Source: a virus
Taxonomy: Duplodnaviria > Caudoviricetes
IMG/VR virus record: IMGVR_UViG_3300032330_002177
Location: 1 to 64,000 of that record
Length of the DNA stretch: 64,000 bases
Reading direction: 5' to 3' (one strand)
The notes under the pieces are model-generated. The model did not search any database. It was given only the letters and a program-made list of their open reading frames with translations, and was not told the DNA's origin. Numbering within the stretch: the first letter of the stretch is position 1; every line of letters begins with the position of its first letter. Both the position numbers and the translations under genes were made by a program. Of this stretch, positions 14,604-15,952 are shown piece by piece.

Positions 14604-14610
14604 TTAGCTC

Positions 14611-14729
14611 ACAGAAGTGGCGGAATCGGTTATATATCTAGTAATAAACCAGCGTTAGACGTATACCATAGTAATATGGTAGGGAATTAGAGTAATCTTC
14701 CCGTGTGAGTGCGAGTCTCACCTTCTGTA
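14611..14729 (+). ncRNA. tRNA-like RNA without a canonical anticodon loop
   Basis: Acceptor ACAGAAG/CTTCTGT+A; T arm GTGAG-TGCGAGT-CTCAC; Leu-type D arm with insert; anticodon arm TACCATA-GTAA-TATGGTA. Confidence 0.7.
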
Positions 14730-14750
14730 CAATTTAGTTCTTTAATTTAC

Positions 14751-15324
14751 GGGGATGACTTGGTATTTGATCCGGATGATAAGGATAATATCACACGCAG
14801 AGGTATGGTTCTATTCCTCTTTAATCACTGAACAAAACTATAAACGACAACAAAATCGCTCGTCAAGAAGAAGGTGCCTCTATTATCAACATGGCTTTTG
14901 CTAATGTAGCTATGGCTGCCTAGGATCTACGGATCTTTTCTTTCCCTGGCAACTTGGGTGAAACAGTAAGTTGTGAATTGAGTTTTCTTAGTTGAACCAG
15001 CTAATCAATTGAGTGGTGGAGCGGCCGAAAGGTCCCAATAACTTACGGTGCAGTAGAAATACAGTACTAAGCGTGTGAGACGTTGGTATTATTGTTACTT
15101 TCGGAGACCCGGGTTCAAGTTGGACCTCCTTACTAGGAATGGTAAGGTAATAAAGTGGGTGAATTCGGTGAAAGCAGCAGCTAATACCGAGCCAAGCTAA
15201 GAGTACACTCTTAGAAGGTGTAGAGACTACCTGAGTAGTAAAGACTACTTAATAACAGGCAAGAGCGCCCACCAGTCAGAACGGCTGATGAGATAGTCCA
15301 TAAATGCGACTCCCGGCATCTCCA
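14751..15324 (+). ncRNA. ssrA: tmRNA interrupted by a group I intron
   Basis: Acceptor GGGGATG/CATCTCC+A with G3:U; tag ORF 14846-14923 ending VAMAA-TAG; T arm CCGGG-TT^CGACT-CCCGG restored by removing 15116-15306. Confidence 0.93.
15116..15306 (+). mobile_element. Group I intron (IC3-like, 191 nt) in the tmRNA T-loop
   Basis: Exon ends in U and intron ends in G; P1 GGUU^C/GGACC with U:G; core GAATTCGGTGAAA, AATACCGAGCCAAG, GTAGAGACTA, GAGATAGTCC; P3 GTGGGTG/CGCCCAC. Confidence 0.9.
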
Positions 15325-15378
15325 CAAGTTCCTATCGTCTCCCCAAATTTTCATATATTTATTGGAAACAATAATTAT

Positions 15379-15858
15379 ATGAAAACGGGAACGAAGGAAT
15401 ATTATTCTGAATATTATCGAGATAATAAGGAAAAGCATAAAGCTAGAATGAAAGATTATAGACAGGATAATGAAAAAATACAACTTTATGAGGCAGAGTA
15501 TCATAAACAGAAATATCAAAAAATAAAAACAGAAACCGATATTAATGTTTTAAGAGAAAAATGGAACCAACAATCAAAAATTAAAAATAAACAACGAAGA
15601 GAATTTATTAATGAATATAAATCTAAATGTTGTTGTAGTAAATGTGGAGAAAATAGACCATATATTTTAGATTTCCACCACATTGATCCATCTCAAAAAT
15701 CATTTGATTTAGGTGATGCTACTAAACACAGTGTTGATAAACTTAAATTAGAATTAGAAAAATGTATCACGTTATGTCGTAATTGTCATAGTGAATTTCA
15801 TTACTTTGAAAAAGAACAAGGTATTACACTTAATGAATATTTAAATACAGTGGCGTAG
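15379..15858 (+). CDS. Free-standing HNH endonuclease (homing-type)
   Basis: CSKCG...LDFHHIDP...CITLCRNCHSEFH; ATG at 15379; stop codon lies inside tRNA-Met. Confidence 0.85.
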   Translation: MKTGTKEYYSEYYRDNKEKHKARMKDYRQDNEKIQLYEAEYHKQKYQKIKTETDINVLREKWNQQSKIKNKQRREFINEYKSKCCCSKCGENRPYILDFHHIDPSQKSFDLGDATKHSVDKLKLELEKCITLCRNCHSEFHYFEKEQGITLNEYLNTVA

Positions 15859-15920
15859 AGCAGTGGTAGCTCACTAGGCTCATAACCTAGGGGTCGTTGG
15901 TTCAATTCCAACCGCCGCAA
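15849..15920 (+). tRNA. tRNA-Met(CAT), initiator-like
   Basis: Cloverleaf with CTAGG-CTCATAA-CCTAG; A1:A72 mismatch and A11-U24 pair; CCA not encoded. Confidence 0.92.
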
Positions 15921-15925
15921 CTATT

Positions 15926-15952
15926 AAGCAATCAGAAATGGTTGCTTTTTTT
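15926..15952 (+). terminator. Intrinsic terminator
   Basis: AAGCAATCA-GAAA-TGGTTGCTT followed by a T run. Confidence 0.8.

Follow-up and report, generated by a model that had tools for sequence, protein, structure and literature searches.

A survey of intron-form tmRNAs published in 2025 counted 883 unique sequences, spread over 21 phyla and four subsites of the T-loop (PMC11915505). Position 7 of the loop is the commonest subsite; position 3 is confined to the class Bacteroidia, with nine genome instances (PMC11915505). In the clostridial and Bacillota form, as far as the survey relates it (Williams 2002 via PMC11915505), a group I intron lies in the T-psi-C loop of a bacterial gene, at subsite 7, and the mature tmRNA needs splicing. 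Endonuclease genes are rare in these introns, are of the LAGLIDADG type and are intron-internal, sitting in P7.1 or after P9 (PMC11915505). The catalogued phage tmRNAs, mycobacteriophage entries among them, are standard or CDS-less forms; the virus search behind the catalogue took in RefSeq viruses only, and no intron-form phage entry is mentioned (PMC11915505). Our search of the literature found no report of an intron-split phage tmRNA.

Free-standing homing endonuclease genes occur in phage tRNA clusters, as with segB of T4 and the HNH genes of T5. A free-standing enzyme may also serve an intron, and the psbA intron of S-PM2 with the endonuclease F-CphI has been described as 'collaborative homing' (PMC6083498).

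The window analysed here is a stretch of 64,000 nucleotides from an IMG/VR virus record of 102 kb (CheckV completeness 63%, ~28% G+C). Its tmRNA gene is interrupted in the T-loop by a group I intron, as a first-pass annotation had proposed, and every feature which that annotation listed was found in its place (Table 1). The gene is a real intron-split phage tmRNA gene, with splicing predicted from its sequence. The annotation took clostridial tmRNAs as the precedent; T-loop intron-form tmRNAs do exist, but the comparison is out of date, as such genes now span 21 phyla and the window's intron occupies the rare position 3 and not the clostridial position 7. Like the clostridial and Bacillota examples, in so far as the survey describes them, the locus combines a group I intron in the T-psi-C loop with a mature tmRNA that would need splicing. 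Unlike them it belongs to a phage, and its endonuclease gene, of HNH type, stands beside the tmRNA gene and not inside the intron. As with other phage-encoded tmRNAs, this is the phage's own tmRNA-like gene near tRNA genes, but in intron form. The combination of phage, position 3, P9-less intron and linked HNH gene appears to be unpublished; none of its components is new, and other uncultured phages have the arrangement too.

We consider it probable, taking the explanation as a whole, that an uncultured and distantly T4-like phage owns an ssrA-type gene with a 191-nt position-3 intron, that splicing would restore the tmRNA, and that the intron and the adjacent HNH gene would behave as mobile DNA at the tmRNA 3' end.

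Table 1. Features of the split tmRNA locus and its surroundings (window coordinates)
Feature	Position	Strand	Length	Details	Evidence
Whole split tmRNA gene	14751-15324	+	574 nt	Exon 1, intron, exon 2	
tmRNA exon 1	14751..15115	+		5' acceptor strand 14751-14757, D-loop analogue, pseudoknots; T stem 5' strand 15109-15113; T-loop nt 1-2 at 15114-15115	Rfam tmRNA match; ARAGORN on spliced sequence; alignment with intronless phage tmRNAs
Tag reading frame	14846..14923	+		Resume codon GAC 14846; stop TAG 14921-14923	ARAGORN
Tract identical in window and L086/L150	15063..15405	+	343 nt	Exon 1 end, intron, exon 2, spacer, HNH start	
Group I intron	15116..15306	+	191 nt	ORF-less	Rfam; pairing; covariation; minimum-free-energy fold
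P1	15111-15115 / 15123-15127	+		GGGUU (exon) / GACCU (guide); U15115 opposite G15123, wobble at 5' splice site	
P10	15118-15122 / 15307-15311	+	5 bp	AGUUG / CGACU (exon 2 start)	
P2	15128-15147	+			
P3	15155-15161 / 15266-15272	+			
P4	15165-15169 / 15186-15190	+			
P5	15173-15182	+	3 bp		
P6/P6a	15191-15219	+			
P7	15225-15229 / 15294-15298	+			
P7.1 hairpin	15230-15259	+	30 nt	Between P7 and P3'	
P8	15273-15287	+			
Terminal G of intron	15306	+			
tmRNA exon 2	15307..15324	+		T-loop nt 3-7 (CGACU); T stem 3' strand 15312-15316; acceptor 3' strand 15317-15323; discriminator A15324	
HNH endonuclease gene, free-standing	15379..15858	+	159 aa		PHROG HNH families, E 1e-22; Pfam HNH, 21.4 bits, at cut-off
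tRNA-Met(CAU)	15849..15921	+			ARAGORN; Rfam
Terminator-like hairpin	15926-15947	+		After tRNA-Met; sole + strand one in unit	

Anatomy and detection of the split gene

Deletion of 15116-15306 brings CCGGG-TT (15109-15115) up to CGACT-CCCGG (15307-15316) and gives the T arm CCGGG/TTCGACT/CCCGG. The annotation had called the rebuilt arm perfect, and the same ligated sequence stands in intronless relatives, for example L008. It had also described an acceptor stem of alanine identity: GGGGATG (14751-14757) does pair with CATCTCC (15317-15323), with the G3:U pair (G3:U70) present. CCA is not encoded after the tmRNA, where CAA stands instead. The insertion, TT|CGACT, falls between T-loop nucleotides 2 and 3, or position 3 as PMC11915505 counts the subsites. 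On the spliced sequence ARAGORN calls a 384-nt tmRNA starting at 14751, with a tag of 25 encoded residues, DNKIARQEEGASIINMAFANVAMAA, that ends AMAA.

The annotation expected that an insertion of this kind would break standard tmRNA detection, and it does. ARAGORN finds no tmRNA in the unspliced window, and together with default Rfam it reports, over the whole window, three tRNAs and nothing else. With Rfam in E-value mode the unspliced tmRNA matches at 14751-15130 with 42.2 bits (E 2.4e-15; gathering score 47), a score held down because the model cannot reach exon 2. The intron matches Intron_gpI (RF00028) with 49.1 bits (E 2.5e-11; gathering score 50) in an alignment that ends exactly at G15306, and a second score for it, 47.1 bits (E 2.9e-12), is also below the gathering score of 50. 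The Infernal check put forward in the annotation thus gives low E-values for both models on the unspliced sequence but scores just below both gathering scores, and for this reason a default scan reports neither tmRNA nor intron. Since default ARAGORN and Rfam both miss the gene, phage tmRNA genes are under-counted. An antisense ORF at 15211-15519 had no family match and was treated as spurious.

Empty sites and intron borders

Related loci were gathered by a search with the window's neighbouring GroEL, which returned 80 viral loci. Nine of these relatives (L003-L009, L011 and L050) carry uninterrupted tmRNA genes downstream of GroEL and a tRNA array; their GroEL proteins are 64-89% identical to that of the window, and 81-89% in the eight closest. 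The 3' ends of their tmRNA genes align base for base with the predicted ligated product, that of L008 being ACGGGTTCGACTCCCGTCATCTCCAC, with a loop identical to TTCGACT. Acceptor and T stems covary among the intronless relatives, and G3:U is kept in all of them. Because relatives carry these empty sites, 15116-15306 is identified as an insertion.

The borders are ambiguous by one base, since C15116 equals C15307, and the rule of U at -1 with G as the last intron base settles this shift in favour of 15116-15306. The boundaries are those of the annotation, with U15115 opposite G15123 in P1 and G15306 as the last base. Borders at 15118-15308 were rejected, for with them the loop would be TTCAACT, A would stand at -1, the U:G pair would go and P10 would be shorter.

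The tmRNA tags of L003-L011, L088 and L209-L211 are unusually long, at 23-25 residues, with the core ...MTF(D/E)D(L/V)M(A/S)FVGADYA(L/V)AA. Tags of the window and of the viral locus L086 are also long, but differ from this clade's conserved core.

Intron structure and predicted splicing

The secondary structure was derived by hand, and all 61 of its 61 pairs are canonical. The minimum-free-energy fold finds P2, P3, P4, P5, P6a, P7.1 and P8 (z = -4.4). For covariation we aligned 15 family members, all in tmRNA T-loops (the window and 14 relatives): 94% of cells are paired, against 32-43% with the partners slid by one to three columns. Changes on both sides were seen at 30 pairs, and the observed values were reached in none of 500 shuffles. 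Such compensatory changes occur in P2, P3, P4, P6, P6a, P7.1, P8 and P10, and P7 is invariant. The P1 helix is kept across the intron family, and in P10 two of the five pairs change on both sides with exon 2.

P9 is absent from the window intron, where P7' is followed by only 7 nt (CAUAAAU) before the terminal G. In each of the 14 aligned relatives P5 is long and a P9 with a GAAA cap is present; the window intron lacks both P9 and distal P5, and because of this loss it scores 49.1 bits with Rfam against 77-96 bits in the relatives. In group I architecture L9 docks on P5 in a tertiary contact. As the two missing pieces are the partners of this contact, their absence suggests that one module was lost, not that the intron decayed at random. 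A natural intron that has no P9 and just three base pairs in P5, set beside 14 intact relatives, offers a ready comparison for the contribution of the peripheral contact.

The absence of P9 and distal P5, which every other member possesses, and the low Rfam score would also be expected of a decayed relic, dead for splicing since that loss and lying in a tmRNA pseudogene that is tolerated as the host supplies tmRNA. We regard this as unlikely. The remaining helices, the U:G pair of P1, P10 and the terminal G are all intact, and loss of both partners of a single contact fits the removal of one module. In addition, an identical intron is found in L086 (the same as L150, on a 124-kb contig). Substitutions and indels have accumulated in the tmRNA exon there, but the tag frame, the A-x-A-A ending (...ARIINMAFANVALAA) and the stems are kept, which argues that the tmRNA gene, and so its splicing, is under selection.

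In the favoured explanation, that of an active split tmRNA gene, a precursor would be transcribed, probably jointly with the downstream HNH gene and tRNA-Met. A joint transcript is proposed because no terminator-like hairpin was found between the tmRNA and the HNH gene, the sole one standing after tRNA-Met. The steps past transcription are predictions. The intron would fold to its P1-P8 core, and an external guanosine would attack after U15115, held in P1 opposite G15123. P10 would align exon 2, the terminal G15306 would enter the G site, and ligation would rebuild the T arm CCGGG-UUCGACU-CCCGG. The ~383-nt product would be trimmed, receive CCA and, by way of G3:U70, be loaded with alanine by the host alanyl-tRNA synthetase. 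The tmRNA would work with host SmpB, adding a 26-residue tag ending AMAA. A mature tmRNA could exist only after the predicted splicing, as the annotation had held.

Intron family

BLAST likeness of the intron core extends to the psbA intron of S-PM2 (75% identity over 113 nt), to introns of crAss-like phages and to a Flavobacterium phage intron. The conserved pattern of P7, P7.1 and P3' has matches at 73 viral and 42 bacterial loci. On its sequence we assign the window intron as IA-like and not IC3-like. The clostridial tmRNA intron of Williams 2002 is reportedly labelled IA3.

The annotation had likened the core to IC3 tRNA introns, a point on which we differ. An IC3-type intron, as in bacterial tRNA anticodon loops, would indeed be small, ORF-less and placed inside a tRNA-like domain, but we hold this assignment very unlikely because of the P7.1 hairpin and the family relationships. 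The 30-nt hairpin between P7 and P3' is backed by covariation, and to our knowledge canonical IC3 introns have no hairpin there (Michel-Westhof classes). The insertion lies in a T-loop, whereas the typical home of IC3 introns is the tRNA anticodon loop, and the closest relatives are tmRNA introns, the Bacteroidia ssrA intron included, and phage introns in protein-coding genes. A P7.1 region has been named in tmRNA introns too (PMC11915505).

Same-site introns and phage identity

The nearest same-site intron is bacterial. Our scan of genomes turned up a single bacterial case at position 3, L163. It is a Bacteroidia MAG of 7.2 Mb whose ssrA gene, with the tag GNNQFALAA, carries a 231-nt intron of the same family at the same site. 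The possibility that L163 is a phage contig in a MAG was rejected, given the 7.2-Mb genome, the bacterial-type tag and the absence of a match to the window's DNA polymerase. The two introns have in common the layout of P1, P2, P3-P8 and P7.1 and the start CAAG; that of L163 has P9, and the window intron falls 40 nt short of it, having no P9 and only 3 bp in P5. More generally, the window gene resembles Bacteroidia position-3 tmRNA genes in site (TT|CGA..), in the rules of U at -1 and terminal G and in intron family. It differs from them in belonging to a phage, in its 25-residue tag and in the HNH gene directly downstream. That phages and Bacteroidia ssrA have introns of one family at one tmRNA site connects the gene pools of phage and host, and hints at a host among the Bacteroidota.

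The genes around the tmRNA locus encode a family B DNA polymerase (PolB), Hsp20, a GroEL-type chaperonin and a clamp-loader ATPase. The polymerase is distantly T4-like; its best isolate match is the PolB of Microcystis phage Mel-JY01 (36% identity). A search for SmpB in the 102-kb record, itself only 63% complete, found no such gene. Least credible of the alternatives is a bacterial ssrA, on a contig misclassed as viral or in host DNA beside a prophage: tmRNA genes are common integration sites, position-3 introns have so far been reported from Bacteroidia genomes only (PMC11915505) and the nearest same-site intron is that of a Bacteroidia MAG, but T4-like replication and chaperone genes surround the gene, a tmRNA beside GroEL and tRNA arrays is kept in related viral contigs as long as 181 kb, the tag of 25 residues is unlike the bacterial GNNQFALAA type, and the record yielded no SmpB.

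A tRNA-like element stands just upstream of the tmRNA, at 14608-14732; it has a T arm, and its acceptor stem is 7 bp long. Relatives have tRNA-Leu(UAA) in its place, and the acceptor and T arms of the two align. The element has ~40 extra nt in the D region and is without the UAA anticodon loop; neither ARAGORN nor Rfam calls it as a tRNA, and it gives a weak match to the Rfam permuted-tmRNA model (25.6 bits). At the other end of the unit, the last 10 nt of the HNH ORF (15849-15858) overlap tRNA-Met. L086 is without this tRNA-Met, the window segment 15849-15950 being missing there.

The HNH gene and possible intron mobility

The HNH gene starts 54 nt past the tmRNA and 73 nt past the intron. 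Neither this neighbour nor the loss of P9 and distal P5 figures in the annotation of the locus. Cys and His/Asn residues of its HNH motif are invariant in six homologues. In all of its eight nearest homologues (48-94% identity) the start lies no more than ~50 nt beyond the 3' end of a phage tmRNA, at the spot taken in HNH-less relatives by a terminator hairpin. Across the wider family a tRNA or tmRNA gene lies within 1.5 kb at 43 of 59 viral loci, with distant members inside tRNA arrays. The family therein resembles T4 segB and the T5 HNH genes, which also lie among tRNA genes; unlike them, the window's subfamily is specific to the tmRNA 3' flank. The intron is present in two of eight tmRNA loci with HNH (the window and L086) and in none of eight without it, numbers too small for linkage. 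As six of the eight close homologues stand beside intronless tmRNA genes, the HNH gene does not need the intron. This tmRNA-3'-end subfamily, with loci that have the intron and loci that do not, makes a possible cooperation of intron and endonuclease at an RNA gene tractable.

A tract of 343 nt around the intron is identical in the window and L086. Outside it, 21 of 442 nt differ in the rest of the HNH gene, and 93 of 312 columns differ in exon 1, with large indels. At the divergence rate of the HNH gene, the chance of zero differences in 343 nt is ~6e-8. The tract would reflect either unusually strong constraint or a recent gene conversion with its centre at the intron and the tmRNA 3' end. 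It matches the pattern expected of homing.

The locus also resembles the psbA intron of S-PM2 with F-CphI. In both cases an ORF-less phage intron of the same family is accompanied by a free-standing endonuclease gene immediately downstream of the interrupted gene, but in the window the interrupted gene is an RNA gene. A resemblance of the HNH protein to F-CphI was tested and rejected, as the two have only the motif LCRNC in common (E 0.14); F-CphI is of the Endo VII type, whereas the window's enzyme is of the HNH zinc-finger type and has no significant similarity to it. A more specific account, which we offer tentatively as one possibility, is that the intron is a minimised but active ribozyme without the L9-P5 contact, spread in trans by an HNH enzyme that would cut intronless tmRNA genes near the T arm. 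The 343-nt tract would then be the footprint of a recent event, and the whole a case of collaborative homing at an RNA gene.

Other split tmRNA loci

The annotation regarded an intron in a phage tmRNA as unusual, which overstates the case. At least 12 other IMG/VR viral loci have a T arm split at the same site and a matching 5' acceptor strand 334-399 nt upstream. In L093, L099, L120, L149 and L162 adjacent Rfam tmRNA and Intron_gpI matches are both above gathering score, and in L118 a tmRNA match above gathering score lies beside the intron site. Searches of isolate phages with the window and L099 as queries found none with an intron-split tmRNA; what matched was the intron core alone, at sites that include terminase genes and a tRNA cluster.

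Several members depart from the usual borders. In L095, L129, L132, L152, L159, L090, L100 and relatives, P1 and P10 place the splice sites at TT|...|CGA, yet an A precedes exon 2; in L118 a U precedes exon 2, not the near-universal terminal G. Alternative borders for L118 and the L095 type would put G or A at -1 and leave the T-loop non-canonical.

At nine further loci (L090, L100, L105, L111, L116, L133, L138, L153 and L157) the T arm and the acceptor 3' half (ATGCTCC-AC) are split by same-family introns of 297 or 871 nt, with no matching 5' acceptor strand found in the 560 nt before them. Such tmRNA genes may be permuted or made of two pieces, or their 5' part could lie further off.

GOLLD RNA genes scoring 289-330 bits stand on other phage contigs that have intron-split tmRNAs (L099:2509-2918, L162:4411-4817 and L093:5677-6083), and one such contig has a Hatchet ribozyme (80 bits; L098:1607-1735). 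Lastly, the cultured jumbo phage Klebsiella phage Muenster (L265; MT708547.1 302896-303086) has a same-family intron in an unannotated gap of its tRNA cluster, between tRNA-Ser and tRNA-Asn and with an annotated HNH endonuclease just downstream; this is probably an unannotated intron-split tRNA gene.
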